Source: a virus (Duplodnaviria > Heunggongvirae > Uroviricota > Caudoviricetes). Taken from it: 14,406 nt of DNA. Shown here piece by piece: positions 654 through 14,406 of this stretch. The translations under genes and the position numbers were made by a program. Below the pieces are notes generated by a model, which was not told the DNA's origin, ran no database searches, and saw only the letters and a program-made list of their open reading frames with translations. The first letter of the stretch is position 1. Each line of letters begins with the position of its first letter. The DNA lies in IMG/VR virus record IMGVR_UViG_2711768040_000007, positions 1 through 14,406 of that record; one strand, written 5' to 3'.

Positions 654-693
654 GTGTTAATTTCTGGTCATGAGGTAATTTTCAGGAGGGCTT

Positions 694-1116
694 GTGGCAA
701 AAGTTTTTACACAAGAAGAGCGGGAAAAAATTAAAGGACAGGTTGTTGAACTCGTACGCCAGAGTGGGCGCGAGACGTTACGACAACTGGAAGCTAAAAC
801 TGGGGCAACAAGATATCTGATGAGCGTTCTTGCCAGAGAACTGGTAGCCAGTGGCGATGTATACAACTCCGGCTGCGGGTTATTCCCGTCTGAACAGGCC
901 CGTAAGGACTGGCAAAACGCCCGCAAAAAACTCTCAAGGGCAAAGGTGAAGAAAACGGCTGTGGTTGATCCGGACCTTATCAGGTCATTACCTGACGGAG
1001 AAATACGCCGCTACGACAGGCGTCAGAACATAATCTGTCGCGAGTGCCGGAAGAGCGAAGTTATGCAGCGCATATTGTCGTTTTATCAGGGTAATTTTCA
1101 GGAGGTGATGGCGTGA
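694..1116 (+). CDS. Hypothetical protein, 140 aa, with a C-terminal CxxC pair
   Basis: ORF with GTG start 4 nt downstream of an AGGAGG Shine-Dalgarno; its stop overlaps the start of the next gene (GTGA). Confidence 0.45.
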   Translation: MAKVFTQEEREKIKGQVVELVRQSGRETLRQLEAKTGATRYLMSVLARELVASGDVYNSGCGLFPSEQARKDWQNARKKLSRAKVKKTAVVDPDLIRSLPDGEIRRYDRRQNIICRECRKSEVMQRILSFYQGNFQEVMA

Positions 1117-1418
1117 GGGTGAGAGTCTATATCGCCGGTCCAATGACCGGGTATAAAAATTTCAACCGTGAGGCATTTCACGAGGCGGAAGAGAAGCTGA
1201 AACAGAAAGGGTGCACGGTGTTGAATCCGGCAGTGCTTCCTGGTGGGCTGACACAGGCGCAGTACATGGATATTTGTACGGCGATGCTCCGCTGTGTGGA
1301 TACGATTTACATGCTGAAAGGCTGGCATCGGTCGGCAGGCGCTAAGGCAGAACTGGCGCTGGCGGCGAAACTGGGGCATGAGGTTGTATTTCAGGAGGTA
1401 AGCAGTGAGAAAAATTAA
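1113..1418 (+). CDS. DUF4406 / nucleoside 2-deoxyribosyltransferase-like protein, 101 aa
   Basis: N-terminal RVYIAGPMTG resembles the conserved YxAGP motif of this fold. GTG start 7 nt after AGGAGG, overlapping the upstream stop. Confidence 0.5.
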   Translation: MRVRVYIAGPMTGYKNFNREAFHEAEEKLKQKGCTVLNPAVLPGGLTQAQYMDICTAMLRCVDTIYMLKGWHRSAGAKAELALAAKLGHEVVFQEVSSEKN

Positions 1419-2073
1419 TTATCAGGCGCTACGTGAGATAGCAAAACTGGCAACACAGGGCGAATGGGTCGCATTCATTTCGCCGGGCACTGATACATAT
1501 GCGGTGCATACGCCGGGGGATGAACGTTGCGGAGACATTATCAAATGGCCTGGCTTTGACGACCAGAAAAATGCAGAGAACAACGCAGAATTTATCGCAG
1601 CTTTCAACCCTAAAGTAGTGCAGGCACTGCTGGATGAACGGGAAAGAAACCAGCAATATATCAAACGCCGCGACCAGGAGAACGAGGACATTGCGCTAAC
1701 GGTAGGGAAGCTGCGTGTTGAGCTTGAGGAGACAAAATCAAAACTCAACGAGCAGCGTGAGTATTACGAGGGAGTAATCGCGGATGGAAGTAAGCGCATA
1801 GCAGAACTGGAAGCACGGGAAATAAAACCAGCCAAAGGCGAAGTTCTTGTCGTTGTATCTGGTTTTACTGGTTGCGGAAAAAGCGCCATTGCCGGGGAAA
1901 TAGAAATCGCGATGAAGGCTATTGGTGTACCGGTTAAGTGGACTAATGGCGATGCAGAAAAGCGCATGACTGGCGCTGACTGGCTGACAGCGATTGAGAT
2001 GTACAAACCAACAGTGCACATCGTGGAAGTTAATGTGCCACGCGCCGCTGGCATTCGCATCAAAGGAGAGTGA
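1405..2073 (+). CDS. Ea22-like prophage protein with a coiled-coil middle and a C-terminal P-loop-like motif, 222 aa
   Basis: N-terminal region resembles ead/Ea22-like prophage proteins; charged heptad-like central segment; VLVVVSGFTGCGKS fits the GxxxxGK[ST] pattern. GTG start 7 nt after AGGAGG. Confidence 0.5.
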   Translation: MRKINYQALREIAKLATQGEWVAFISPGTDTYAVHTPGDERCGDIIKWPGFDDQKNAENNAEFIAAFNPKVVQALLDERERNQQYIKRRDQENEDIALTVGKLRVELEETKSKLNEQREYYEGVIADGSKRIAELEAREIKPAKGEVLVVVSGFTGCGKSAIAGEIEIAMKAIGVPVKWTNGDAEKRMTGADWLTAIEMYKPTVHIVEVNVPRAAGIRIKGE

Positions 2074-2074
2074 T

Positions 2075-2431
2075 ATGGAAATAAAACCAGAAGATGAGTT
2101 AAGTAATATTGTTTTATTTCCGGTAAAAGAGGATGACCCACGTAATCAGGTTAATTTTCTTTATGAGCCATCGGAAAGACCATATTGCCATCACGCCTCT
2201 GTCCGGGTTGACGAAAAAGAGCGTCAGGTCCGCTGTAAAATCTGCGGTGCAGTTGTGGAGCCATTTGACTGGATGCTCTCTGTGGCGAAAAGAGAAACCA
2301 GACTGGCAGATGATGTAAGGCTCTTGCGCCAGGAGGAGCGGGAAAGGCGAAAAAATATAGAAAAGCTAATCCAGATTGAGCGTAATGCGAAAGCGCGGAT
2401 ACGCAGGGTGACAAAATATAGCCCCGAATAA
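2075..2431 (+). CDS. Hypothetical zinc-ribbon-like protein, 118 aa
   Basis: ATG at 2075 sits 1 nt after the upstream stop with AAAGGAGAG upstream. Contains CHH...CKICG, then a basic/acidic helical tail. The track's longer 1994 start is an upstream extension. Confidence 0.45.
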   Translation: MEIKPEDELSNIVLFPVKEDDPRNQVNFLYEPSERPYCHHASVRVDEKERQVRCKICGAVVEPFDWMLSVAKRETRLADDVRLLRQEERERRKNIEKLIQIERNAKARIRRVTKYSPE

Positions 2432-2519
2432 TCAAGGTTATTTCTGGAAGTCAAGTCGTGAGTGATGAGGACTAACAAATACGGTGAACTCGATAAAGAG
2501 ATTCAGGACGAACTGGAGG

Positions 2520-2645
2520 CCAGGAATGATTGACAAATCACCAAGTGAGTTCAGCTACAAAGATTTATTGTCATAACGGGTTATGAGATCGACTTGGTGC
2601 GTGATATTCTTCGGGCCAGTTTGCTATGCGCCACCATGAGATGTT
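2520..2645 (+). promoter_or_regulatory. Candidate promoter/regulatory region upstream of the methyltransferase gene
   Basis: Perfect TTGACA hexamer at about 2530..2535 but no convincing -10. Inverted repeat CATAAC-gg-GTTATG at about 2572..2585. Intergenic and AT-rich. Confidence 0.25.
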
Positions 2646-4478
2646 ATGGCCCGCATGTTTGATACATTAGGATTTTACATTATGAATGTGCAACATTTTG
2701 ATTTTTTTACAGATAATGAGTTTTCTAATCTGGAAAGATATCAAACTTGTAAAGCCATGGCCAAAGGTTATGCGGGCAATTACAAAACCGGGCAGTCAAG
2801 GTTGATGCATGCCCGCTCATACTGCTTCAGCATCGTAGCTGCATATTGGGATACCCTTGCAAAAAAGCAAAAAAGCAGCATTAAAATGAGGGCAGTACCG
2901 CACACTGTTTACATAGAAGACATTCCATGTGATGCACGCGAGCTCGCTGAACGAACAGGTGAGCTTATTGCTCAATTTCCGGCGGAGGACGCTGGATATC
3001 TGATTGGGTCAATTTATACGGTAATGCTGCCATCCGCTTACCGTTCGGAATTGGGGGCTTACTATACCCCCCCACCTTTGGTAGCGCGTCTCTTGGACCT
3101 GGCTGAAAAGTCTGGTGTTGATTTTTCTCATGCATCGGTTATTGATCCTGCGTGTGGTGGCGGTGCATTTTTGGCACCAGTAGCCATTCGAATGTTAAAA
3201 AAAGACAAGGGGTCTTCCCCTGAATGGATGTTGAGGAGAATCAGTCGTCGTTTAAAGGGGATAGAAATCGATCCATTTGCGGCTTGGATGAGTTTGGTAT
3301 TGCTCGAATCTGTACTAATGCCACTATGTGTAAAGGTAAAACGTAGATTGCCTGAAGATACAATTATTGTTGCTGATGCGCTTCAGCAAGATAAAATTTC
3401 TGGTTATGATCTTGTGGTAGGGAATCCGCCTTACGGACGTGTCACTCTCGATATTAAAACGAGAGAAAAATATTCTCGTTCGTTATTTGGTCATGCAAAT
3501 CTATATGGATTGTTCACCGACTTAGCTGTTCGCATGGTTAAAGAGAAAACAGGAGTTATTGCATTTCTTACGCCAACTTCTTTTCTTGGTGGGCAGTATT
3601 TCACCGCGCTGCGAACCCTTTTGACCGAAAAAACTACTCCGTATGCCCTTGATTTCGTCGCTGACAGGGATGGGGTCTTTGACGATGTTCTCCAGGAAAC
3701 AATGTTGACAGCATTCAAGGCGGGAGAACATAAAGTTCGGGCCCAGGTATCCTCACTTGTCCCTAAGGGGTTGAACAAAGCAAAAATTGAGAAAATAGGT
3801 AATGTTGATATAGAAAAAGGTGGAGCAACGTGGCTTTTGCCACGAGTTAAAGATGATGCTTGTTTTCTTAATGTATTAAAACAGATGTCTACGCGTTTAG
3901 CTGATCTGGGATACTCAGTCTCTACAGGTCAGTTAGTCTGGAATCGATTTAAGTCGCAGTTGCGTACGACGAAAGGAAAAAATAGCTATCCATTAGTCTG
4001 GGCGGAATCAATAACTTCAGCTGGTTTCCGTTTTAGCGCAGACAGAAAAAATCATGTTCCCTATATCGATATAACCCCACAACAGGGTTTCCTTGTGACA
4101 AAATCTGAATGTGTGCTTGTTCAGCGGACAACATCGAAGGAGCAGGACAGAAGGATTTTAGCTGCGATTTTACCTCAGGGATTTATAGATGAAACTGGTG
4201 GCGTAGTAGTTGAAAACCATATTAATATTGTGTATTCAAACGGATTGTTCTCTGCGGTTCGCCCTGATGTTATTGATATGCTACTTAATTCGCATGTTGT
4301 CGATCGGGCGTTCAGGTGTATAAGCGGAAGTGTTGCTGTTTCGGCCTATGAATTGAATTCAATCCCGTTGCCTTCTCTGGAGCAGGTGATGGAGATTCAA
4401 TCGTTAATTGATGCCGGCGTCCACAGACGGATTATTGAGAGAACTATCGCTGGTTTCTATGGAGTGATGATTGCATGA
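2646..4478 (+). CDS. Gamma-class N6-adenine DNA methyltransferase (Eco57I/PstI-like family)
   Basis: Motif order GAYYTPP (X), IDPACGGGAFL (I, AdoMet binding), VVGNPPYG (IV, catalytic NPPY), followed by a long C-terminal region consistent with a target-recognition domain. An alternative start at ATG 2682 has a better SD (AGGA about 9 nt upstream). Region is conspicuously AT-rich. Confidence 0.8.
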   Translation: MARMFDTLGFYIMNVQHFDFFTDNEFSNLERYQTCKAMAKGYAGNYKTGQSRLMHARSYCFSIVAAYWDTLAKKQKSSIKMRAVPHTVYIEDIPCDARELAERTGELIAQFPAEDAGYLIGSIYTVMLPSAYRSELGAYYTPPPLVARLLDLAEKSGVDFSHASVIDPACGGGAFLAPVAIRMLKKDKGSSPEWMLRRISRRLKGIEIDPFAAWMSLVLLESVLMPLCVKVKRRLPEDTIIVADALQQDKISGYDLVVGNPPYGRVTLDIKTREKYSRSLFGHANLYGLFTDLAVRMVKEKTGVIAFLTPTSFLGGQYFTALRTLLTEKTTPYALDFVADRDGVFDDVLQETMLTAFKAGEHKVRAQVSSLVPKGLNKAKIEKIGNVDIEKGGATWLLPRVKDDACFLNVLKQMSTRLADLGYSVSTGQLVWNRFKSQLRTTKGKNSYPLVWAESITSAGFRFSADRKNHVPYIDITPQQGFLVTKSECVLVQRTTSKEQDRRILAAILPQGFIDETGGVVVENHINIVYSNGLFSAVRPDVIDMLLNSHVVDRAFRCISGSVAVSAYELNSIPLPSLEQVMEIQSLIDAGVHRRIIERTIAGFYGVMIA

Positions 4479-5557
4479 ATCTGCCTGTTGTTCCCCCATT
4501 GAATGTTATCCGGGAAAGATTACCATTAATTTTCCCTGAAGGGACTGAGAATCGTGGATATTTAATTCGGGAAATAGCTGCAAAAACAATTTTTGTCATG
4601 TTTTATGCTGGTGCGGTTGAGGGGCTGGGGCGATGGATAAGGCCCAGCCAGGTTGTAAGTATGGGAGATTCACAGGCTGCTCTTACTGATGATGCGTCCA
4701 GAGAAAGTTGGGTAAAGATGACTTTCTCTAAACAAAAGATAAGGCCTGCTGATGCATGGTATGCGGAAAATACGCGTGAGCCAATACGTGATGAAACTAT
4801 AAAAAATGGCCTAATACCTTGCAATGCAATTGTTGAGCGTAAAGGTATACCCACCACATCCTCTCATCCTCGTTACAGTTTGAATCGCTCTTTTGCAGCA
4901 CTCTTTGATGCCGGGCTTGAAGGAGATTCGCTGCTGAGTGCAATAAGTTCCTGGCAGGAAAATCATTTGAACAAAGCCGCTCTTGCTAGATTGCGTTTAT
5001 TGAAATCAGGGGCAGTGATTGCTGCTGATGCCGTAGTCGTCACTTTCCCAAATGGAGAGAAGAGAACTTTAGCTCCGGGCCCGTCAAGTACAATAGCTAA
5101 GGCCGTCATCGAAGTTTTTGCTCCTAATTTTCTTAAGAATCCAACTGTGCTCTGGTTGTCTGAATCTGGGAATAAAGTTGTTGCTCAGGATGATGTATTG
5201 GCAAAAGCATTGGGGCTGAATATTGATGCCTCAAAAGCACTTCCAGATATTATTTTGATTGATTTGGGAGAGGACCGAACGGGTTCGGATATGCTTGTAG
5301 TTTTCACTGAGGTAGTTGCGACAGATGGGCCTATAAACAGGGAACGAAAAGTTACTCTCACTCATTTGGCTATTGACGCTGGGTTCAGCGAGAAAAATCT
5401 TGCATTCCTTACGGCATTTATTGACAGAAGTGCTCTGCCTTTTAAAAAGGCAATACCAGAATTGGCGTGGGGATCTTATGCATGGTTTGCTTCTGAACCG
5501 GAGCACTTAATTGATCTTCGGGATGGTTATCCGGTAAAGATCAGCCAGAGAAAATGA
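4475..5557 (+). CDS. Putative type II restriction endonuclease partner (possibly BsuBI/PstI-like)
   Basis: Start overlaps the methyltransferase stop (ATGA), implying translational coupling. Same AT-rich composition. PDIILIDLGED...FTEVV is loosely PD-(D/E)xK-like. Family assignment is from memory, not a search. Confidence 0.5.
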   Translation: MNLPVVPPLNVIRERLPLIFPEGTENRGYLIREIAAKTIFVMFYAGAVEGLGRWIRPSQVVSMGDSQAALTDDASRESWVKMTFSKQKIRPADAWYAENTREPIRDETIKNGLIPCNAIVERKGIPTTSSHPRYSLNRSFAALFDAGLEGDSLLSAISSWQENHLNKAALARLRLLKSGAVIAADAVVVTFPNGEKRTLAPGPSSTIAKAVIEVFAPNFLKNPTVLWLSESGNKVVAQDDVLAKALGLNIDASKALPDIILIDLGEDRTGSDMLVVFTEVVATDGPINRERKVTLTHLAIDAGFSEKNLAFLTAFIDRSALPFKKAIPELAWGSYAWFASEPEHLIDLRDGYPVKISQRK

Positions 5558-5909
5558 ACAAAGTTTGATATCCGCCACGCCCTGAAGGATGAGGGTTTTG
5601 CGGTGCACTGGATAAAAAATCGGTTTCATAGATTTGCCCACCGTGGTATACGCCTGCGATAAAAACTTTATTGTCATCAACGGCAAAAGCAATAATCGTT
5701 CTGTGGCGGAAATGAGTTACCCGCATCCCCTGGCGAATATCATCGCGTTTATTGCCCCGATGCGGGAATGTAGAAAACCCATCAAGATAATCAAGAAGTG
5801 CATTGGCATAATTGTCAGCAATGACGTTCCCTGCTTTCTCAGTTATATATCTGTGCAGGTTGATTATTTGTTGTTCGGCCTCAGGAGTAATGATGACTTC
5901 ATATGTCAT
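5541..5909 (-). CDS. ParE/RelE-family type II toxin with a C-terminal extension
   Basis: Length and sequence character fit ParE-like toxins. It starts 5 nt downstream of the antitoxin stop. Its 3' end overlaps the convergent endonuclease gene by 17 bp. Confidence 0.65.
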   Translation of the reverse strand: MTYEVIITPEAEQQIINLHRYITEKAGNVIADNYANALLDYLDGFSTFPHRGNKRDDIRQGMRVTHFRHRTIIAFAVDDNKVFIAGVYHGGQIYETDFLSSAPQNPHPSGRGGYQTLFIFSG

Positions 5910-5914
5910 GCAGA

Positions 5915-6172
5915 TTACTTCCCGGATCGAATCGCGGCGCGAACCTGTGAAATGGAGCGTCCGTTGTTTGGGTTTTCGCGGATAGAATCAAGAGAGGGGG
6001 CGGCTGAATGCGTTAACCATGCTTCGATTGCTTTATCGCGCTCATTCAGTGCGCGAAGCCCTTCACGAATGACCTCGCTTTCTGAAGCATAGGCACCGGA
6101 AGCCACACGGGCGCGCACCATGTCAGCCATCTCGTTAGTTAATGTAATGCTGAATTGTTGGGTTGTACGCAT
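5915..6172 (-). CDS. ParD-like ribbon-helix-helix antitoxin, 85 aa
   Basis: Internal ATG (MRTTQQFSITLTNEMADMVRARV...) preceded by GAGG. RHH-like N-terminus with SESEVIREGLRAL. The track's 5915..6235 version is an N-terminally extended TTG-start reading. Confidence 0.65.
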   Translation of the reverse strand: MRTTQQFSITLTNEMADMVRARVASGAYASESEVIREGLRALNERDKAIEAWLTHSAAPSLDSIRENPNNGRSISQVRAAIRSGK

Positions 6173-6307
6173 GGTAAACCTCACAGAGTAGGATAGAACA
6201 CTATTCGATGATAGCACGCTGCCTGTTGACGACAACAGAAATCAGAGACAATATTGCCGCACGCCAGCCTGAACAACTGGCACCTGCTGCGTCAGCAGAG
6301 AAAACTG
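6173..6307. promoter_or_regulatory. Divergent intergenic region with candidate promoters for parDE (- strand) and the downstream + strand genes
   Basis: Minus-strand TTGTCG, 16 nt, TATCAT upstream of parD, followed by the palindrome ATAG-tgtt-CTAT in its leader. Plus-strand TTGACG with an AT-rich -10-like element. Confidence 0.3.
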
Positions 6308-6586
6308 ATGGCGCACGATACCAAATTACACAATTCTGATAATTCAGCCGTCTTTGCCAGCAGGCACGGGCGGCGTACTCACGCATTCAAATCAGACTGG
6401 TTCCAGCATCCTCCATGCACTGAAGAGCAGGCGGAATGGATAATTCAGTGTTACCGCAGGCGCGGATACGAGGTTAAGAAAGCTCTTAGCCTCGACTACC
6501 GTCACTGGATAATCTCAGTCAGACTCCCTTACTCCGAACGCCCACCGCGTTCATCCCGCACATACCAGCAACGAATCTGGAGGTAA
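6308..6586 (+). CDS. Hypothetical protein, 92 aa
   Basis: ORF between the divergent promoter region and the DUF968-like gene; the start is uncertain (track gives 6254, first ATG is 6308). No recognisable motif. Confidence 0.35.
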   Translation: MAHDTKLHNSDNSAVFASRHGRRTHAFKSDWFQHPPCTEEQAEWIIQCYRRRGYEVKKALSLDYRHWIISVRLPYSERPPRSSRTYQQRIWR

Positions 6587-6587
6587 C

Positions 6588-7652
6588 GTGCGGGTATTAC
6601 TTAGACCTGTTCTGGTGCCGGAACTCGGGCTGGTGGTCCTTAAGCCAGGTCGTGAATCCATGCAGGTATTTCACAATCCTCGAGTGCTCGTGGAGCCGGA
6701 ACCGAAAAGCATGTGCGGCCTGCCATCCGGAGTCGTCCCTGCCGTTCGCCAGCCGCTGGCGGAGGATAAATCATTACTGCCATTTTTCAGCGATGATCGG
6801 GTGATTCGTGCTGCTGGCGGCGCTGGGGCACTGTCTGACTGGCTGTTGCGTCATGTCAAATCCTGCCAGTGGCCTCATGGTGACTATCATCACAGTGAAA
6901 TCGTCATACATCGTTATGGTATCGGTGCGATGGTGTTGTGCTGGCACTGCGACAACCAGCTGCGTGACCAGACCTCCGAATCACTCGGGCAACTTGCTCA
7001 TCAAAACCTGTCAGCATGGATGATTGACGTCATACGCCATGCAGTGAATGGCACGCAGGAGCGGGAGTTATCGCTGGCTGAATTATCCTGGTGGGCAGTC
7101 TGCAATCAGGTAGCGGACGCACTGCCGGAGGCAGTATTACGTCGCTCTCTGGGGGTACGAGCAGAAAAAATCCGCTCAATATACCGCGAGAGCGACATCA
7201 TACCGGGAGAACAGACAGCCACCAGCATACTGAAGCAGCGCACAAAAAATATTGCGCTACCGCCTCACGTCCACCAGCACCAGCAACAGAACCCACCACA
7301 GGAAAAGACGGTGGTCAGCATTGCCGTTGATCCGGAATCTCCGGCTCAGTATCTCCAGCGCCAGAAACCACAACGGGAAGAGATGCCTGTATACACGCGC
7401 TGGGTAAAAACGCAGAAATGCATGACGTGTGGCAATCAGGCAGATGATCCGCATCACATCATTGGTCATGGACTGGGAGGGATGGGAACAAAGGCTGACG
7501 ATTTGTTTGTTATTCCGCTGTGTCGTAAATGCCATAACGAACTACACGCCGGGGTAAAAGATTTTGAAGAAAAACACGGTAGTCAGTTGTTGTTGCTGAT
7601 TCGTTTTTTAATGCACGCGAGAAATTCGGGTGTTCTGAAGTGGAAAGCATAA
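6588..7652 (+). CDS. DUF968 (YdfU-like) prophage protein with two HNH-like zinc-binding motifs
   Basis: GTG start 6 nt after GGAGG. CMTCGNQADDPHHIIGHG...PLCRKCHNELH near the C-terminus and HHSEIVIHRYG...CWHCDN earlier. Position just upstream of rusA and Q is typical. Confidence 0.6.
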   Translation: MRVLLRPVLVPELGLVVLKPGRESMQVFHNPRVLVEPEPKSMCGLPSGVVPAVRQPLAEDKSLLPFFSDDRVIRAAGGAGALSDWLLRHVKSCQWPHGDYHHSEIVIHRYGIGAMVLCWHCDNQLRDQTSESLGQLAHQNLSAWMIDVIRHAVNGTQERELSLAELSWWAVCNQVADALPEAVLRRSLGVRAEKIRSIYRESDIIPGEQTATSILKQRTKNIALPPHVHQHQQQNPPQEKTVVSIAVDPESPAQYLQRQKPQREEMPVYTRWVKTQKCMTCGNQADDPHHIIGHGLGGMGTKADDLFVIPLCRKCHNELHAGVKDFEEKHGSQLLLLIRFLMHARNSGVLKWKA

Positions 7653-8018
7653 ATGACCGAACGCATAGAATTTGTTTTGCCTTACCCGCCAACGGTGAAC
7701 ACCTACTGGCGACGTCGTGGCAGCACATATTTTGTATCAAAAGCCGGTGAGCGTTATCGCCGTGATGTGGCGCTCATTGTTCGCCAGCAGCGGCTGAAGT
7801 TAAACCTGTCCGGAAGGCTGGCGATAAAGATTATTGCAGAGCCACCGGATAAGCGCCGTCGTGACCTGGACAATATTCTGAAAGCACCACTGGATGCACT
7901 GACACATGCGGGGTTGCTTATCGACGACGAGCAGTTTGATGAAATTAATATTGTGCGCGGACTGCCTGTTCCTGGTGGTCGGTTGGGCGTGAAGATTTAC
8001 AAAATTGAAAGTGAGTGA
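7653..8018 (+). CDS. rusA: Holliday-junction resolvase RusA
   Basis: About 120 aa with a PPDKRRRDLDN acidic catalytic-core region resembling RusA. ATG directly abuts the upstream stop. Confidence 0.8.
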   Translation: MTERIEFVLPYPPTVNTYWRRRGSTYFVSKAGERYRRDVALIVRQQRLKLNLSGRLAIKIIAEPPDKRRRDLDNILKAPLDALTHAGLLIDDEQFDEINIVRGLPVPGGRLGVKIYKIESE

Positions 8019-8026
8019 GCGTAAAT

Positions 8027-8569
8027 ATGATATACCCGGAAATTACAGGCAAAAGCGGCGAGCATTTACGTCTAAAAACGCTGGAAGCCGTCTGGATCCA
8101 GGGGAAATTACGGATGTGGGGGCGTTGGTCGTATATAGGTGGTGGCAAAACAGGAAATATGTTCAATCAGTTGCTGGCATCCAAAAAACTGACAAAAACC
8201 GCGATCAATGAAGCCCTGCGTAGAATCAGGGAGTCAGGGATTGACAAACCAGAGCTGGAAGCATTCTTGCGAGAGATGATCGCTGGCAGACAGAAGAGCT
8301 GGTTGTCTCACTGTACTGATGCAGAGGCGTTACGCATTGATGGGGTGATAAGTAAAGCGCTTGCACGTTATCCTGGATTGATTGATATCCTGCGGCAAAG
8401 GTACGAAGGGCGGGGGATGAGTAAACGCAAAATGGCTGAATTGTTGAATGAGGTTCACCCTGAGTGGTGCTATGCAACATGCCGCAATCGTATAGATATG
8501 TGGCTGAGAATAGCTGAGTTTATTCTGTATCCACTGATGCGAGATGCATTTTCTTTTACTGACGCTTAG
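8027..8569 (+). CDS. Late-gene antiterminator, Q-like
   Basis: Position directly downstream of rusA and upstream of a promoter/terminator region, as expected for Q. Start taken as ATG 8027 rather than the track's GTG 8015. Confidence 0.65.
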   Translation: MIYPEITGKSGEHLRLKTLEAVWIQGKLRMWGRWSYIGGGKTGNMFNQLLASKKLTKTAINEALRRIRESGIDKPELEAFLREMIAGRQKSWLSHCTDAEALRIDGVISKALARYPGLIDILRQRYEGRGMSKRKMAELLNEVHPEWCYATCRNRIDMWLRIAEFILYPLMRDAFSFTDA

Positions 8570-8589
8570 AATCTGGAGGGCGTTTGTTG

Positions 8590-8680
8590 TTGCACGAAGA
8601 GGATTTTTGGCTGGTAGTAAGGTTTATGCAGTTTTAGAAAAAAAGCTTGTATTTTTAGCCATAAACTGTTTCAATCCAGC
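8590..8680 (+). promoter_or_regulatory. Candidate late promoter (PR'-like) and Q-utilisation region
   Basis: Two candidate promoters: TTGCAC plus a weak TAGTAA, and TTGTAT, 17 nt, TTCAAT. Located between Q and the terminator, as in lambda. Confidence 0.35.
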
Positions 8681-8734
8681 TACGCTTCGCAAAGCTGTAC
8701 CGCGAGGCGAATAGCAGACATGGACACCTGAAAG

Positions 8735-8759
8735 AACCCGCTTTATGCGGGTTTTTTTA
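8735..8759 (+). terminator. Intrinsic terminator, tR'-like
   Basis: Stem AACCCGC / GCGGGTT with a 5-nt loop, followed by a run of seven T. Confidence 0.6.
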
Positions 8760-8881
8760 TGCCTGAAAAACGGCACAGAACATTAAACGCGCTGGTAGTT
8801 GTGAATACTGGTCTTTCAGCTTGCTGGCTTTTTCGACAAGAGGTATTAGTATGTCACGTTAACCGAAAAAGGGAAAAAGGC

Positions 8882-9079
8882 ATGCTAAAACAGCAGGATA
8901 TGACCGAAATCGCCAGAGTGGTGTTTAATGAATTAAGCGTCACCGAACCGGCGACCGTCGGGGAAATTGCGCAGAATACTTACCTTTCACGCGAACGCTG
9001 CCAGTTAATACTGACTCAGCTTGTTATGGCGGGTCTGGCAGATTATCAGTTCGGTTGTTACAGACGCCTTCCTCAGTGA
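8882..9079 (+). CDS. Small hypothetical protein with helix-turn-helix-like character, 65 aa
   Basis: ATG preceded by GGGAAAAAGG. The track's 8759 start abuts the terminator T-run with no SD, so the shorter form is preferred. Confidence 0.35.
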   Translation: MLKQQDMTEIARVVFNELSVTEPATVGEIAQNTYLSRERCQLILTQLVMAGLADYQFGCYRRLPQ

Positions 9080-9229
9080 AGGTTTTTTAATTTGTGGTAA
9101 TGGGCGGCTGGTGGGTGTTAGCGGCACCTGCCAGCCATCTGCTCATGCGTTGGGGTCACAAGCAAACCTCAGGCCCATCTGCTTTGCGCAAAAGCGGTAT
9201 GAGCCTATCAGAGAAGTGCTTATTGATCT

Positions 9230-10279
9230 ATGGCCAATACTGTAAAAATATCCAGTTGTGAGTTAATCAACGCTGATTGCCTGGAATTTATCCAGACCTT
9301 ACCGGAAAATTCTGTCGATCTGATAGTCACAGACCCGCCATACTTTAAAGTGAAGCCCGAGGGCTGGGATAACCAGTGGGAGGGCGACGATGATTACCTG
9401 AAATGGCTGGACCAGTGTCTGGCGCAGTTCTGGCGGGTACTGAAGCCTGCCGGAAGTCTTTACCTGTTCTGTGGTCATCGCCTGGCATCTGACACCGAAA
9501 TCATGATGCGTGAGCGCTTTAATGTGCTGAACCACATTATCTGGGCGAAGCCGTCCGGACGCTGGAACGGGTGCAATAAGGAAAGTCTGCGGGCGTATTT
9601 TCCGGCAACAGAGCGCATTCTGTTTGCAGAACATTATCAGGGACCGTATCGCCCGAAAGATGATGGCTATGTGGAGCAGGGGCGCGAGCTAAAACAGCAC
9701 GTCATGGCCCCGCTGATTTCTTACTTTCGTGATGCGCGTAAATCACTGGGAATAACGTCAAAACAGATAGCGGAAGCCACCGGAAAGAAAAACATGGCTT
9801 CGCACTGGTTTGGTACCAGTCAGTGGCAGTTACCGAACGAGGGTGATTACAACAAATTGCAGGCGTTGTTTGCGCGTGTTGCAGCAGAAAAACATCAGCG
9901 CGGGGAACTGGAAAAGCCACACCACCAGCTGGTCAGCACATACAGTGAGCTGAACCGGCAGTATACGGAACTGCTGAGTGAATATAAAAATTTGCGGCGG
10001 TATTTCGGTGTGACGGCGCAGGTTCCGTACACCGATGTCTGGACGCATAAACCGGTGCAGTACTATCCAGGGAAACATCCGTGCGAAAAACCGGCAGAAA
10101 TGCTGCAGCAGATAATCAACGCGAGCAGTCGTCCGGGAGACCTGGTTGCAGATTTTTTTATGGGTTCAGGTTCAACGGTAAAAGCGGCGATGGCACTGGG
10201 GCGTTGTGCGATTGGTGTTGAGCTGGAGACCGGTCGTTTTGAACAGACAGTCAGGGAAGTTCAGGATTTAATCGTTTGA
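9230..10279 (+). CDS. Beta-class DNA amino-methyltransferase (N6-adenine or N4-cytosine), apparently orphan
   Basis: Motif IV LIVTDPPYF near the N-terminus and motif I DLVADFFMGSGST near the C-terminus. No adjacent endonuclease gene. Confidence 0.8.
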   Translation: MANTVKISSCELINADCLEFIQTLPENSVDLIVTDPPYFKVKPEGWDNQWEGDDDYLKWLDQCLAQFWRVLKPAGSLYLFCGHRLASDTEIMMRERFNVLNHIIWAKPSGRWNGCNKESLRAYFPATERILFAEHYQGPYRPKDDGYVEQGRELKQHVMAPLISYFRDARKSLGITSKQIAEATGKKNMASHWFGTSQWQLPNEGDYNKLQALFARVAAEKHQRGELEKPHHQLVSTYSELNRQYTELLSEYKNLRRYFGVTAQVPYTDVWTHKPVQYYPGKHPCEKPAEMLQQIINASSRPGDLVADFFMGSGSTVKAAMALGRCAIGVELETGRFEQTVREVQDLIV

Positions 10280-10328
10280 AACGGATGAGATTGCAGAATT
10301 AATTACGCACCATTATTATTCTGCTCCC

Positions 10329-10404
10329 GGCCCTTTAGCTCAGTGGTGAGAGCGAGCGACTCATAATCGCCAGGTCGCTGGTTCAAATCCAGCAAGGGCC
10401 ACCA
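10329..10404 (+). tRNA. ileZ: tRNA with CAU anticodon (Ile2/lysidine type or Met)
   Basis: Perfect 7-bp acceptor stem GGCCCTT/AAGGGCC, D-arm GCTC...GAGC, anticodon loop CUCAUAA, T-loop TTCAAAT, encoded CCA. Symbol is by analogy with the tRNA cluster of Stx phages. Confidence 0.8.
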
Positions 10405-10411
10405 TCACATA

Positions 10412-10488
10412 CCGCCATTAGCTCATCGGCAGAGAGCGTCAGCTTTCGAAACTGGCTGTGTGGAGCTCGGGTCCCCGATGGCAATCCA
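10412..10488 (+). tRNA. tRNA-like gene, apparent anticodon UCG (Arg), non-canonical and possibly degenerate
   Basis: Good D-arm and encoded CCA end, anticodon loop TTTCGAA, but two mismatches at the acceptor-stem end and an atypical T-loop (CTCGGGT). Confidence 0.45.
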
Positions 10489-10501
10489 TTATCTGCATTA
10501 T

Positions 10502-10578
10502 GCGTTGTTAGCTCAGCCGGACAGAGCAATTGCCTTCTAAGCAATCGGTCACTGGTTCGAATCCAGTACAACGCGCCA
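10502..10578 (+). tRNA. argO: tRNA-Arg, anticodon UCU
   Basis: Perfect acceptor stem GCGTTGT/ACAACGC, anticodon loop CTTCTAA, T-loop TTCGAAT, encoded CCA. Symbol by analogy with Stx-phage tRNA clusters. Confidence 0.8.
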
Positions 10579-10590
10579 CGCTTATTTTTC

Positions 10591-10616
10591 CAGGCTCGCT
10601 TCGGCGGGCCTTTTTC
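10591..10616 (+). terminator. Intrinsic terminator downstream of the tRNA cluster
   Basis: Stem GGCTCGC / GCGGGCC (one G.U pair) around a TTCG tetraloop, followed by TTTTT. Confidence 0.5.
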
Positions 10617-10753
10617 ATATCCGCGCCACGCCCGGCGCACATCAAAAAACCACAGAGCCTTTCAGGGGTGAGCTTACGGGATGGTCAGTGTGACTTTCTC
10701 TGTGGGCTGGTCACCCCCGGGCGCAGGCTCACCCACTAAAAGGAAAAGTCACG

Positions 10754-11179
10754 ATGTTTGGTATTTTCAAAAAGAAAACCCGCAAGGCCATTACCGAAGT
10801 GAAGAAGATGGAGAACCGCGATGCGGTGGAAGCGACTGTCTGGGGCGCATATTCCATTGCATACGCTGACGGTACCTGTGACGCAAAAGAAATTGCGGTG
10901 CTGGAAAAAACCATTGCAGCACTTCCGGCTTTTGCGCCGTTCTCGGGTGAGATTGCACAAATGAGTGCAAATATCCGCGCCCGTTATGAAGCGTCACCTC
11001 GTAGTGCGAATGCTCAGGCTTTGCGTGAACTGGCTGACGTGGCAGGAACCGCCGAAGCGGTTGATGTGCTGTGCCTGTGTCTTGATATTGCTGACCAGGA
11101 TGGCATTGGTCCGGATGAAGAAGCACAGCTCAAGAAAATTGCTCAGGCGCTGCAGTTGCCGCTGGAGCAGTACCTGTGA
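10754..11179 (+). CDS. TerB-like (tellurite-resistance TerB / DjlA N-terminal-like) protein, 141 aa
   Basis: ATG after AAAGGAAAAG. Acidic helical protein with paired ADG/D...E motifs typical of TerB-like domains. Confidence 0.55.
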   Translation: MFGIFKKKTRKAITEVKKMENRDAVEATVWGAYSIAYADGTCDAKEIAVLEKTIAALPAFAPFSGEIAQMSANIRARYEASPRSANAQALRELADVAGTAEAVDVLCLCLDIADQDGIGPDEEAQLKKIAQALQLPLEQYL

Positions 11180-11328
11180 AAAGTGCGCGCCTTGTGCTGG
11201 CTGCCATCCTGCTGTTTCTGGTAGTGGCGGTGGATTTTACCGGGCACCTGATGTCGATACTGGCAGATGGTGTACTGGTGGCCGGAGTGGTTGCACTGCT
11301 CTGGCCTTTACTGCGCAAATCTGAATAA
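11176..11328 (+). CDS. Small membrane protein, 50 aa, two hydrophobic segments; not in the ORF track because it is short
   Basis: GTG start overlapping the TerB-like stop (GTGA) with GGAG 8 nt upstream. Translation VKSARLVLAAILLFLVVAV...VLVAGVVALLWPLLRKSE. Confidence 0.35.
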   Translation: MKSARLVLAAILLFLVVAVDFTGHLMSILADGVLVAGVVALLWPLLRKSE

Positions 11329-11337
11329 CACCACACA

Positions 11338-11402
11338 AAAGGCATCTGCGGGTGCCTTTGACAGGGTGTTGTTTTTTACGGGCCGCTGGTGGCCCTTTTT
11401 TA
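11338..11402 (+). terminator. Tandem intrinsic terminators
   Basis: Hairpin AAAGGCA-8 nt-TGCCTTT followed by a T-run, then hairpin GGGCC-6 nt-GGCCC followed by TTTTTTATTT. Confidence 0.5.
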
Positions 11403-11419
11403 TTTACAGGAGAAAAGGT

Positions 11420-11809
11420 ATGTCTGAACCCTTATCCGGGACGGGTACGGCTGCGGCGCTTGGAGGGGCGACGGCATTCGGTGTGTTCACCGGTACGGAT
11501 TTTGGGATAGTGTTTGGCGCATTTGCCGGGGCGCTGTTTGTGGCCACGATGCCACAGGCGCTTTCAGCATGGAGGATTGCGGGCCATTTTGTGGTGTCTT
11601 TCATCATCGGCGTGCTGGGGGCAAAGGCGCTGGCGTCATATCTTGCAACGAAAACAGGTTATGACGGTGCCTCTGCTGAAGCATTGTGTGCGGTGCTGGT
11701 GTCGGTGTTGTCAGTGAAGATTCTCTCGTTTATCCATCAGCAGGATATCGGTTCGTTGATATCGGGCCTGTTTTCCCGGCTGCGTGGGGGAGGTGGCAAT
11801 GGCCGGTAA
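11420..11809 (+). CDS. Putative holin or membrane lysis protein, 129 aa
   Basis: ATG after ACAGGAGAAAAGG. Gly/Ala-rich hydrophobic segments. Position at the head of the lysis cassette. Confidence 0.5.
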   Translation: MSEPLSGTGTAAALGGATAFGVFTGTDFGIVFGAFAGALFVATMPQALSAWRIAGHFVVSFIIGVLGAKALASYLATKTGYDGASAEALCAVLVSVLSVKILSFIHQQDIGSLISGLFSRLRGGGGNGR

Positions 11810-12074
11810 TATTCCAGGACTGCTGAATGTGGCGCTATGTACAGTTATCGTGCTGGCGCTTTTTTTCTACCGCCGAAAAGATGCCACGCATAAACCGCTG
11901 GTGTCGTGGTTGGCCTGGCTGCTGATGCTTGTCTATGCGGTCGCGCCGCTCAGTTTTCTGTGCGGTCGTCCTCTTCCCGGTAACTGGGCGGTGGTGCTGG
12001 CTAATCTGTTGTTCTGTGTGCTGGTGGTATGGGCGCGCGGGAATGTGTCAAAAATCCTTTCATTACTGAGGTAA
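11799..12074 (+). CDS. Putative holin or antiholin, 91 aa, about three transmembrane segments
   Basis: Overlaps the upstream gene by 11 nt. Hydrophobic segments with a charged loop. Immediately precedes the endolysin. Confidence 0.45.
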   Translation: MAGNIPGLLNVALCTVIVLALFFYRRKDATHKPLVSWLAWLLMLVYAVAPLSFLCGRPLPGNWAVVLANLLFCVLVVWARGNVSKILSLLR

Positions 12075-12076
12075 GT

Positions 12077-12472
12077 ATGTCGGGAAAATTCATATTTAGT
12101 CGTCGCAGTGAAAAGAATCTGGAAGGCGTTAAGCCGCAACTGGTGGCGGTAGTGCGTCGCGCTCTGGAACTAACGGAAGTTGATTTTGGTATCACCGAAG
12201 GCCTTCGCAGTAAATACCGTCAGAAACAACTGGTCGCCGCAGGCAAAAGCCAGACGATGAACAGCCGGCACCTGACTGGTGAAGCGGTTGATGTATTACC
12301 GGTTGGTGCTGACTGGAATGATTACAAATGCTGGCTACCTGTATTGAGGGCATTTTACCAGGCTGGCAATGAGCTGGGCGTGAAACTTCGCTTTGGTATC
12401 ACCTGGACATCAAATCCTGATGATAAGCCAGCACGTTTTCTTGATGCTCCGCATATTGAACTGGGGTCGTGA
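12077..12472 (+). CDS. Endolysin, peptidase M15 family (L-alanyl-D-glutamate peptidase type)
   Basis: SRHLTGEAVDV zinc-binding motif. GAGG SD embedded in the end of the upstream gene. Confidence 0.8.
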   Translation: MSGKFIFSRRSEKNLEGVKPQLVAVVRRALELTEVDFGITEGLRSKYRQKQLVAAGKSQTMNSRHLTGEAVDVLPVGADWNDYKCWLPVLRAFYQAGNELGVKLRFGITWTSNPDDKPARFLDAPHIELGS

Positions 12473-12960
12473 TGAAAGATATTCCAGGTTTTGGTGGTAA
12501 ATATAAAATATCTGATTCTGGTGAGGTGGTTGGGCCATCAGGAAGGATTCTGAAACCCAGGCGTGATAAAGATGGATATTTGCGGCTCAATATGATGCAC
12601 CCTAAAAAAGGGCGAGACACCTACCTTATTCATCGCCTGGTAATGCTGACATATAGAGGGGAAACACCAGAGGGTTACTGCATTGATCATATAGACGGAA
12701 ATAAGAGAAATAATTATATAGGGAATCTCCGTTTTGCGCGCCCATGTCAAAATGCATGGAATTCCCGTCGACGCAAAGGTAGCTCAGGAGTGATTGGTGT
12801 GCACAAAAACAAAGGTAAATTCCAGGCCAGAATATCTGTCAACAAAAAAAGAATTTATCTTGGGCGGTTTAATTCTCCAGAGGTTGCTGCAGTTGCTCGT
12901 GATTCGGCTGCAAGGCTGTTTCATGGAGAGTTTGCTTTATGTAATTCTCCCACCGGTTGA
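12472..12960 (+). CDS. HNH homing endonuclease with NUMOD4-like N-terminus and AP2 DNA-binding domain
   Basis: IPGFGGKYKISDSGEV (NUMOD4-like), CIDHIDGNKRNN (HNH), GVIGVHKNKGKFQARISVNKKRIYLGRF...AA (AP2-like). Start overlaps the endolysin stop; GTG 12469 is an alternative start. Confidence 0.8.
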   Translation: MKDIPGFGGKYKISDSGEVVGPSGRILKPRRDKDGYLRLNMMHPKKGRDTYLIHRLVMLTYRGETPEGYCIDHIDGNKRNNYIGNLRFARPCQNAWNSRRRKGSSGVIGVHKNKGKFQARISVNKKRIYLGRFNSPEVAAVARDSAARLFHGEFALCNSPTG

Positions 12961-12964
12961 CGAT

Positions 12965-13147
12965 ATGAGTCGTAAACACTGGACACACAGAATGCCGCGA
13001 ACGGCGGCGAAATGGGTACTGGTAGCGATACTGGTGCCTTTTTTATTGGTGGGGTGCGTCAGCCTGGATAAGGCGCGCCAGCTTTTCGATACCGCGTCTC
13101 AGGTCTGTGAAATTGTCGACGGTGTTCGGCAGTGTCTGCAGAACTGA
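12965..13147 (+). CDS. Small lipoprotein, candidate outer-membrane spanin-like or moron lipoprotein
   Basis: Signal peptide KWVLVAILVPFLLVGC with lipobox LVGC. Mature part about 30 aa with two further Cys. Weak SD; ATG 12992 is an alternative start. Confidence 0.45.
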   Translation: MSRKHWTHRMPRTAAKWVLVAILVPFLLVGCVSLDKARQLFDTASQVCEIVDGVRQCLQN

Positions 13148-13321
13148 TCGCCTGTAAGAGCAGAATATTTTGCTGAAAAAAGAAGGATGCGTCAGCGTCC
13201 GGTAAGCATGAAATTCTGTGTTTGTGGCTACTCAATAAAATAAATTCTTTCTGTCTCCGCGAATACTCAAATGTTGATCAGCGCCCGGGGCGGTGACGGG
13301 CTTCGATATCAGGAGAAGATA

Positions 13322-13714
13322 ATGGCAAAGAAAGAAGACAAACCAATGGTAATTGGTGCTGTGGCTGTTCCGTTTAAGTTTGAACTGTCACAACTGGTGG
13401 AGATGCGCATCAGTGATGAATGGGGTGAGGTTAAAGCTCGCGCGCAGTATGTGGATGGCGAAAACCAGTACTTGATCCACTACAAGGCTGCTGATGGTCG
13501 CGCCACAACGGCGTGGTTTGGTGAGTCAATGCTGGAAGCAACAGAAGATGATCGCCATCCGGGCTGTCCGGTATTTGCCGGTATGAAATTACCGGAAGGT
13601 GCAGTTGAACTGCAGCCGGGTGAGGTGTTCGTAATGACAGACATCATTGATGGTAATCCGCAGTATTCTCGTATTGAAATGAATAGTAAGAGTGCTCGCC
13701 TGATTCGTGAGTAA
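13322..13714 (+). CDS. Hypothetical protein, 130 aa
   Basis: ATG after CAGGAGAAG. No recognisable motifs. Sits between the lysis cassette and cos, where lambda carries accessory genes such as bor. Confidence 0.5.
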   Translation: MAKKEDKPMVIGAVAVPFKFELSQLVEMRISDEWGEVKARAQYVDGENQYLIHYKAADGRATTAWFGESMLEATEDDRHPGCPVFAGMKLPEGAVELQPGEVFVMTDIIDGNPQYSRIEMNSKSARLIRE

Positions 13715-13718
13715 CAGG

Positions 13719-13757
13719 CATTACAGCAGCCCTTCACTCTAAGGGGGTGCTGTAATG
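13719..13757. other. Extended imperfect hairpin (10-bp outer stem plus 5-bp inner stem) just after the stop of the preceding gene
   Basis: CATTACAGCA pairs with TGCTGTAATG; inner CCCTT pairs with AAGGG. No T-run follows on either strand. Confidence 0.4.
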
Positions 13758-14110
13758 TGAGAAATAAAAAATCGGTCACAGGGAGCAGCTACACAGAACC
13801 GGCCGGCGAAGACCGCCAATACCACCCATGCATTGATGCAACATACTAATGACAATAGCCGCTATTGATGTAAATGCAATGTTATGCATCGACGAAAATA
13901 AAAAACCGGCAGGGGAAATCCATTGAAGATTTGCCGGTGGCAAAAGAGGGCCATGTTTTTAACCTTAGTCGCAGAGTTACGGAGTGCAACTACGAATGCT
14001 GCCGGTATATGGCTGAATGGCGTTTCAATGATGTACGTCATCTTATCTGTAAATGTTAATGACAAACGCTCTCATTTGTGCGGGTCCTTCCGGTGGGGTG
14101 GCCTGCCACG

Positions 14111-14122
14111 GGGCGGCGACCT
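14111..14122. other. cosN, the lambda-type 12-nt cohesive-end sequence GGGCGGCGACCT
   Basis: Exact match to the lambda cohesive end as I remember it, with lambda-like flanks (GGGTCCTT..CCGGTG upstream). Confidence 0.75.
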
Positions 14123-14290
14123 CTCGGGTTTTCGCTATTTATGAAAATTTTCCGGTTTAAGGCGTTTCCGTTCTTCTTCGTCGTAACTTAATGTTTTTAT
14201 TTAAAACACCCCCTGAAAAGAAAGGAAACGACAGGTGCTGAAAACGGGCTTTTTGGCCTCTGTCGTTTCCTTTCTCTGTTTTTGTCCGTG
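14123..14290. promoter_or_regulatory. cosB-like terminase-binding region (R3, an AT-rich IHF-like segment, R2, R1)
   Basis: CGTTTCCGTTCTTCTTCG, AT-rich AACTTAATGTTTTTATTTAAAA, AAAGGAAACGACAG and its inverted copy CTGTCGTTTCCTTTCTCTG, arranged as in lambda. Confidence 0.6.
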
Positions 14291-14299
14291 GAATGAACA

Positions 14300-14406
14300 A
14301 TGGAAGTCAACAAAAAGCAGCTGGCTGACATTTTCGGCGCGAGTATCCGTACCATTCAGAACTGGCAGGAGCAGGGAATGCCCGTTCTGCGGGGTGGTGG
14401 GAAGGG
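14300..14406 (+). CDS. nu1: Terminase small subunit Nu1, N-terminal part (3' end outside the window)
   Basis: Translation MEVNKKQLADIFGASIRTIQNWQEQGMPVLRGGGKG matches the N-terminus of lambda Nu1 as I recall it. Positioned just after cosB. Confidence 0.85.
   Translation, partial: MEVNKKQLADIFGASIRTIQNWQEQGMPVLRGGGK

Follow-up and report, generated by a model that had tools for sequence, protein, structure and literature searches.

The tciA-tciB genes as an optional cassette in the Stx cargo slot of a phiP27-like lambdoid prophage

What does a lambdoid prophage carry at the position where Shiga toxin (Stx) phages carry their toxin genes, and at which stage of the phage life cycle would such cargo be expressed? 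The question is raised by a 14,406-nucleotide (nt) stretch of viral DNA (positions 1 to 14,406 of IMG/VR record IMGVR_UViG_2711768040_000007; the whole stretch is called the window below), which open reading frame (ORF) analysis, Pfam and PHROG scans and phage DNA comparison identify as part of a lambdoid prophage with a phiP27-like backbone. An earlier note, made from the sequence alone, had seen in its cargo a TerB-like gene coupled to an unannotated ORF for a 50-residue membrane protein, and had not recognised the pairing as a described system. The pair is in fact already known. The genes are tciA and tciB of phage P1, long annotated (PHROG 632 and 1470; Pfam TerB and DUF3927), named in the P1 record (NC_005856) and assigned as a matter of routine by the annotation pipeline PGAP, which in many E. 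coli prophages labels them 'tellurite resistance TerB family protein' and 'DUF3927 family protein'. The exact sequences of both TciA and TciB are present in NCBI, and the supposedly unannotated ORF stands in RefSeq under the second of these labels. Rediscovery of the pair is no news, and the useful additions made here are the exact boundaries of the block that holds it, with natural empty sites, and a conserved leader in front of it. The best explanation overall, to which we give a probability of about 0.5, is that tciA-tciB is an accessory cassette in a variable cargo slot between the Q and tRNA genes and the lysis genes, and that it encodes a late-expressed, leader-gated, membrane-anchored TerB module. 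The two genes are these:

10754-11179, plus strand: tciA, encoding a six-helix cytoplasmic TerB-family protein of 141 residues that bears two ADGxxxxxE motifs (Pfam, PHROG, profile search and AlphaFold2)
11176-11328, plus strand: tciB, encoding a 50-residue DUF3927 protein with a GTG start codon and two hydrophobic segments (Pfam and PHROG)

TciA is a full-length TerB-fold protein. It matches Pfam TerB (PF05099) with an E value of 1.7e-7 (32 bits, against a curated cutoff of 24.4) and PHROG 632 over its full length with an E value of 1.9e-65. A family of 103 relatives was collected by searching 1.84 billion representative proteins exhaustively; 102 of these relatives match Pfam TerB themselves, and the profile of this family aligns with the solved TerB of Klebsiella (2jxu) over residues 8-143, essentially the whole protein, with an E value of 7e-28. 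It was the profile search that produced this match; TciA used as a single sequence retrieved nothing meaningful from the Protein Data Bank (PDB). More distant full-length members of the family profile are approximately 30-40% identical to TciA. The AlphaFold2 model built on the 103-sequence alignment is an all-helical bundle of six helices with a mean predicted local distance difference test score (pLDDT) of 90.5; modelling from the single sequence gave a pLDDT of 57 and was unusable. The best PDB match of the model in Foldseek is the TerB-like structure 2h5n (probability 1.0; template modelling score 0.52-0.57), although with an E value of only 0.02, and the nuclear magnetic resonance structure of TerB, 2jxu, was not retrieved by that search. 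The two ADGxxxxxE motifs lie at residues 38-46 and 113-122, and G40, E46, G117 and E122 are nearly invariant across the 103 sequences. Anantharaman et al. are said to have proposed in 2012 that the duplicated acidic 'aDGxxxxxE' motifs of TerB form a metal-binding site.

TciB matches Pfam DUF3927 (PF13064) over residues 4-48 of its 50 (E value 3.8e-16; 59.3 bits against a cutoff of 25) and PHROG 1470, the 'TciB-like' family, with an E value of 2.9e-24. Its hydrophobic segments fall at approximately residues 6-19 and 25-46, its termini are basic, and its conserved core reads DFT(G/S)..MS.LADGVLV..WP. The stop codon of tciA and the GTG start of tciB overlap in the tetranucleotide GTGA, 8 nt downstream of a GGAG Shine-Dalgarno (SD) motif, and the same kind of overlap is found in 11 of 14 loci, the genes abutting in the remaining three. 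A TciB homologue follows TciA directly in 15 of the 17 loci with a TciA homologue, which is to say in all 15 that hold downstream DNA and were scanned; in one of these TciA is only 45% identical, and in a locus whose TciA is 40% identical the tciB ORF is present even though the annotation does not call it. Viral loci with enough sequence have a tciB ORF after tciA in 91 of 93 cases. A single natural TciA-TciB fusion protein (P0061) is weak evidence, coming from one contig and possibly from an assembly error. Compared with the window, close relatives give ratios of nonsynonymous to synonymous substitution rates of 0.01-0.08 for tciA and 0.2-0.47 for tciB, values that indicate purifying selection on both genes. 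Judged by these sequence comparisons, the pairing of TciA with TciB is real and old. Two proposals of the earlier note are thereby borne out: the TerB-like assignment, by the Pfam, PHROG 632 and 2jxu profile matches and the AlphaFold2 fold, and the translationally coupled small membrane partner, by the overlap, the SD motif, its conservation and its two hydrophobic segments.

A distant lambdoid locus on a JGI metagenome contig (L019, 3428-3973) shows a variant arrangement, in which a TerB protein 40% identical to TciA is followed by an uncalled 46-residue TciB-like ORF and then by a second, divergent TerB-like gene of 134 residues. This tandem arrangement sits 3' of NinG and Q.

What might a TerB-fold protein do beside so small a partner? 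In the ter operon, terC lies directly after terB, and TerC is a large polytopic membrane protein. TciA and the TerB of terZABCDE (2jxu) are homologous over their full length and share the helical fold and both ADGxxxxxE motifs, and in each case a membrane-protein gene directly follows, terC there and tciB here; the window differs in lacking TerC, TerD, TerE, TerZ and TerA, and the partner is a 50-residue hairpin. A second point of comparison is DjlA, which has a TerB-type domain held on the cytoplasmic side of the inner membrane, as we envisage for TciA, but which carries its tether in the same polypeptide and has a J domain as output to recruit DnaK, whereas TciA has no output domain; TciA does not match the NCBIfam DjlA model significantly (E value 0.094). 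TerB is the partner of the membrane protein TerC in a TerC-TerB complex (PMC12054061, PMC11003894), and in DjlA a membrane helix precedes the TerB-like domain (bioRxiv 2024.08.29.610257). From these two precedents, TerB with its partner TerC and the membrane-held TerB-like domain in DjlA, we suggest by analogy that TciB is probably the inner-membrane anchor of TciA. Both ends of TciB probably lie in the cytoplasm, and the protein would tether acidic TciA on the inner side of the membrane.

The kinship with ter genes invites two other interpretations. Taken literally, the database annotation makes the pair a tellurite or colicin resistance determinant, and the names and the TerB homology are what speak for this; we regard it as very unlikely. 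Tellurite resistance needs terCDE, and terZAB, terB included, is dispensable for it (PMC4633105), while TerC-TerD has been reported as the minimal tellurite unit (cited in PMC12054061). The scanned ORFs of the window hold no homologue of TerC, TerD, TerE or TerZ in Pfam or PHROG. Since resistance depends on terCDE and terZAB gives filamentation, the 'tellurite resistance' label is unlikely to apply to TciA, and as a name for these phage genes 'tellurite resistance protein' probably misleads. The second interpretation is that the pair inhibits host cell division during lytic growth, in line with the element of the tci name that stands for 'inhibition of cell division'; it gains some plausibility from the many temperate phages that carry division inhibitors expressed on induction. 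In Yersinia and E. coli, filamentation does follow when terZAB is expressed, and does not when terCDE is, yet the effect has not been assigned to terB alone and lethality was mapped to terZA (PMC4633105). A P1 preprint groups tciA, tciB and tciC with icd and kilA, by annotation only, and there is no direct evidence of division inhibition for TciAB; we consider this role improbable.

Where, then, does the cassette begin and end? The features that bear on this are as follows.

10592-10616, plus strand: rho-independent terminator of the tRNA block (hairpin 10592-10611 followed by a T-run); backbone, common to Stx2 phages and empty sites
10623-10638, plus strand: small conserved hairpin GCGCC-acgccc-GGCGC; backbone, with two pairs changed on both sides (RNAalifold and pair counts), also present in E. 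coli KKo009 and E. coli W
10644-11324, plus strand: the cassette proper, 681 nt comprising an A-run, the long leader, tciA and tciB; absent from empty-site relatives (blastn and the sequences of KKo009 and E. coli W)
11325-11401, plus strand: tandem terminators (compound hairpin 11325-11372 and U-run; 11380-11395 and U-run), belonging to the holin junction and kept in phages without tciAB
11420-12472, plus strand: lysis cassette of a holin (Phage_holin_8), a second holin (Phage_holin_3_7) and an M15-type endolysin (Pfam and PHROG)

Homology between the window and Stx2 phages takes in the 3' end of the methylase gene, the tRNA genes and their terminator, and stops at approximately 10627-10640, some 40-50 nt before stxA in those phages. 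The closest sequenced phage, phiP27 (NC_003356), matches the window over 8747-10627 at 89.9% identity and again over 11234-12294 at 79.6%; between the two blocks it has the stx2e A and B genes and one small ORF in place of tciA and the 5' part of tciB. Just 5' of its holin gene, phiP27 still has the last ~95 nt of tciB as a frameshifted remnant, together with the same tandem terminators (L018 4895-5037, equivalent to window 11234-11401). The presence of stx2e in place of most of tciAB, alongside a tciB remnant, bears on how the toxin cassette entered that backbone. The stx2 and stx2e operons of 933W-like phages and phiP27 thus share with tciAB the same slot, directly behind the tRNA-block terminator and ahead of the lysis genes, and presumably also a dependence on Q-mediated read-through. 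The proteins are unrelated, and the two cargoes can share one prophage: a prophage of Shiga toxin-producing E. coli (STEC308) has both stx2e and tciAB, at successive tRNA-adjacent positions.

Empty sites give the boundaries directly. In E. coli KKo009 (L140 2943-3096) and E. coli W (L139, approximately 2960-3100), almost nothing separates the upstream terminator and the small hairpin from the tandem terminators, and the same holins follow; the KKo009 junction has a 7-nt filler. KKo009 instead has two unannotated 'hypothetical' genes (347 and 170 residues) between Q and the junction, which are other cargo in this interval. As the block missing from KKo009 and E. coli W matches window 10644-11324, the cassette is a 681-nt present-or-absent block. 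The genes tciA and tciB travel together as this 0.68-kb unit, and sites with and without it occur in two variants of the backbone. The earlier note's placing of the cargo at the stx locus is accordingly upheld by the end of the Stx2-phage homology and by stx2e at this place in phiP27, and the cargo is a discrete extra block, seen both occupied and empty in otherwise collinear relatives.

The same comparison bears on the idea that TciAB is an antiholin-like accessory that modulates the triggering of the adjoining holins. The cassette does lie directly 5' of the holin genes here, a Phage_holin_8-type homologue is detected downstream in 43 of the 93 related loci with enough sequence, and a small membrane-located protein would be made from the same late transcript. 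Nevertheless, the same holin-holin-endolysin cassette with its terminators works without tciAB in the phiP27, E. coli W and KKo009 relatives, the P1 tci genes are not beside lysis genes, and in a few loci a nanS-p-like esterase gene stands between tciB and the lysis genes. A dedicated role in lysis timing is in our view unlikely.

When the pair would be expressed depends on how transcription reaches the block, for which three further features are relevant.

8015-8569, plus strand: late antiterminator Q of the DUF1133 type (Pfam DUF1133, E value 5.6e-102; Phage_antitermQ, 2.6e-6; PHROG 753)
approximately 8633-8675, plus strand: candidate pR' promoter with weak hexamers, by inference only
8737-8758, plus strand: tR'-like hairpin and T-run 3' of Q, read from the sequence as cccgctttatgcggg followed by ttttttt and missed by the terminator scan

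A moron, in the usage attributed to Juhala et al. in 2000, is reportedly a block of additional genes that brings a promoter and a terminator of its own. Neither was found within the cassette. On the plus strand between 8500 and 13000, a scan for the sigma-70 consensus returned no promoter-like site, and by eye only 3/6 hexamers are seen in 10612-10753; the flanking terminators remain in empty sites. The terminators themselves are well attested: related loci conserve those on both sides, 117 of 119 such loci have a T-run ahead of the leader, and the tandem-terminator region folds with a z score of -3.1, none of 200 shuffles folding as well. Over 8500-13000 as a whole, terminator-like sites number 9 against 5.0 +/- 2.6 in shuffles, which is not clearly above expectation, and the scan places a further one at 9066-9083, 3' of Q. 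The earlier note was right that a terminator lies upstream and a tandem pair downstream, but these are retained in empty sites and so are not parts of the cassette. Its 'independent transcription unit' is not supported: the terminators are backbone elements that adjoin one another when the site is empty, no promoter was found, and the lysis genes can be reached only through the cassette.

In lambdoid phages, RNA polymerase modified by Q gets to the lysis genes by reading through terminators, as has been established both for lambda and, in Stx phages, for stx2. As neither a promoter nor a terminator was found within the cassette, tciAB would be transcribed mainly on the Q-antiterminated late transcript that crosses it to the holins, like stx2 in Stx phages. 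In a repressed prophage, by the same reasoning, it would be largely silenced by four terminators between the candidate pR' and the end of the cassette (8737-8758, 9066-9083, that of the tRNA block and the tandem pair). The candidate pR' and tR'-like terminator (8633-8758) would by themselves give a short leader transcript; 8684-8757 is a sub-threshold Rfam match to isrK, and the isrK and AgrB matches in 8633-8758 score 21.6 and 27.1 bits, respectively.

Phage P1 provides an independent context for the same genes. Its TciA is 87% identical (82% at the DNA level) and its TciB 51% identical to those of the window, and the gene order, the coupled or abutting arrangement, the nearby tRNA genes and the dispensability of the genes are common to both. 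P1 differs in having a third small gene, tciC, with no homologue in the window, in having no leader, and in placing the genes in the early, C1-controlled ban region rather than in a Q-dependent late operon beside lysis genes. P1 tciABC lies 3' of the C1-operator-controlled Pban promoters and 5' of ban (NC_005856), and from this placement it probably belongs to the Pban-ban operon. Transcripts of tciA, tciB and tciC have been measured in lytic infection by P1vir (preprint); the three genes are non-essential in a CRISPR interference (CRISPRi) screen (PMC10695390), and the tci operon is a variable region of P1-like elements, around half of P1 subgroup 1 being without it (PMC9603915). Given that no sigma-70-like promoter was found, and given the backbone terminators, the crossing Q transcript, and the position and lytic transcripts of the P1 genes, the pair is more likely to be expressed late or lytically, under Q, than in the repressed lysogen.

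This is the point at which to weigh the view that the pair is a lysogenic-conversion moron, expressed from the repressed prophage and serving superinfection exclusion, abortive infection or membrane-stress sensing. The block is discrete and optional, in a slot that also hosts stx and other genes, and it is widespread in prophages: an 841-nt query finds a DNA match in 1,114 of 5,426 complete E. coli genomes, 165 of which cover at least 80% of the query. A tRNA promoter annotated upstream in Stx phages could give read-through. Furthermore, ter operons that include TerB confer phage inhibition and colicin resistance, and deletion of terC lowers phage resistance, although the phenotypes in that study map to terC, terD, terZ and terA and not to terB (PMC12054061). 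Against these considerations stand the absence of any promoter-like site from the terminator to tciA in the sigma-70 scan, the efficient-looking terminator right before the cassette in nearly all loci, and the placement of the P1 genes downstream of C1-repressed promoters, which leans against expression in the repressed state; in addition, neither TciA nor TciB has a hit at E <= 1 in PADLOC-DB 2.0. We consider a lysogen function possible but doubtful. Whatever the function, tciAB is among the commonest unexplained cargoes of the stx-carrying slot, with related DNA in about one-fifth of complete E. coli genomes.

A late-expressed cassette could still be regulated at the level of translation, and here a further element comes into play.

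10650-10743, plus strand: conserved 5' leader, with a long stem pairing 10658-10674 with 10726-10743 that includes the tciA SD (AAAGG, 10739-10743) and a crossing helix pairing 10650-10657 with 10698-10705

About 110 nt 5' of tciA are conserved across lambdoid-type cassettes, even where TciA is only 40-45% identical, and one lineage shows DNA identity of 82.9% in the leader compared with 62.0% in tciA. The leader pattern was found in at least 119 viral contigs, with tciA approximately 20 nt downstream in 104 of the 105 that have enough sequence; the sample was gathered by a DNA pattern taken from the leader itself and is thus biased to leader-bearing loci. In 16 representative sequences analysed with RNAalifold, 95.6% of cells in the SD-including stem pair and four pairs are changed on both sides, a result reached by none of 500 shuffles, and sliding the 3' partners by one to three columns reduces pairing to only 36-47%. 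The second helix (10650-10657 with 10698-10705) is similarly supported, with a few compensatory changes of its own, and crosses the SD stem, so the leader would either form a pseudoknot or switch from one fold to another. On the strength of these alignments, the leader probably controls tciA translation by hiding the SD: pairing of the stem with the SD would gate tciA, and tciB would then be made by coupling.

TerC-family genes are classic targets of the manganese-sensing yybP-ykoY riboswitch. A riboswitch identity for the tciA leader was considered and not adopted, as Rfam 15 gave no match at E <= 1 in the leader interval 10612-10753, yybP-ykoY included, and there is no ligand evidence. A more elaborate conjecture, which we put forward tentatively and think rather unlikely as a whole, is that the leader is an undescribed cis-regulatory RNA in which the SD-occluding stem and the crossing helix act as alternative states of a translational switch, responsive to an ion, temperature or a protein, and gate a membrane-tethered TerB module late in infection. 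If it were true, a metal-responsive leader before a phage TerB gene would link lytic development to the metal or membrane state of the host.

Several points weigh against the late-expressed, leader-gated, membrane-anchored module that we favour. We found no experimental study of TciA or TciB in the searchable literature, and its functional steps are inferred. The promoter scan is compatible with a weak or alternative-sigma promoter, or with read-through from a tRNA promoter in the lysogen. Since P1 has no leader, the leader is not required for the tciA/tciB pair. The covariation in the leader comes from few independent lineages, and some of the long stem was prescribed by the pattern used to find it. 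Finally, the two crossing helices leave room for both a pseudoknot and alternative folds. As to what the favoured module might do, our guess is a dispensable membrane, ion or envelope-stress function during lytic growth, which may keep the membrane energised and thereby safeguard lysis timing, or may shut out competing phages or colicins. With modest confidence, we put a membrane or envelope role in the lytic phase ahead of exclusion, lysis timing and division inhibition, which are further possibilities.

The surrounding genes place the cassette in its prophage. The window reads, in order, a PstI-like restriction-modification (R-M) pair, a DUF968 protein, RusA, Q, a TrmB-like small ORF, a methyltransferase, three tRNA genes, tciA, tciB, two holins, an M15-type endolysin and an HNH gene, and the succession of Q, methyltransferase, tRNAs, cargo and lysis genes that the earlier note had read from the letters agrees with the Pfam and PHROG scans. 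Two of these features have yet to be located:

9230-10279, plus strand: N6/N4 DNA methyltransferase (Pfam N6_N4_Mtase, E value 1.9e-44); backbone, common to phiP27 and Stx2 phages
10329-10578, plus strand: three tRNA genes, CAT 'Met' (labelled ileZ in Stx/P27 phages), Arg-TCG and Arg-TCT (ARAGORN, Rfam tRNA and Stx-phage annotation)

Same-strand tRNA genes lie within 800 nt upstream in 65 of 113 leader-bearing viral cassettes, in sets that vary between loci (Met/Ile-Arg-Arg, Met-Arg, Thr-Gly, Asn-Gly and Val), and P1 tciABC likewise has tRNA genes at its flanks. At 2646-5557, the type II R-M pair consists of an N6-adenine methylase of 610 residues with Eco57I and N6_Mtase domains followed by a BsuBI/PstI-family endonuclease of 360 residues, and is likely to be lysogen defence cargo in a nin-like region. 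At the other end, a homing-endonuclease-type gene with HNH, NUMOD4 and AP2-like features (12469-12960) overlaps the endolysin stop codon; the interval 12295-12960 has no counterpart in phiP27, pPE4, STEC308 or a Citrobacter braakii relative and, going by this comparison, looks like an insertion into the lysis region. The relative named pPE4 is PP818812.1, 'Actinobacillus phage vB_Apl-pPE4', which is 84-94% identical to Escherichia-type lambdoid sequence over aligned blocks that include tciAB and the lysis genes. One would not expect such similarity in a phage whose host belongs to the Pasteurellaceae, and the host assignment may deserve a check.

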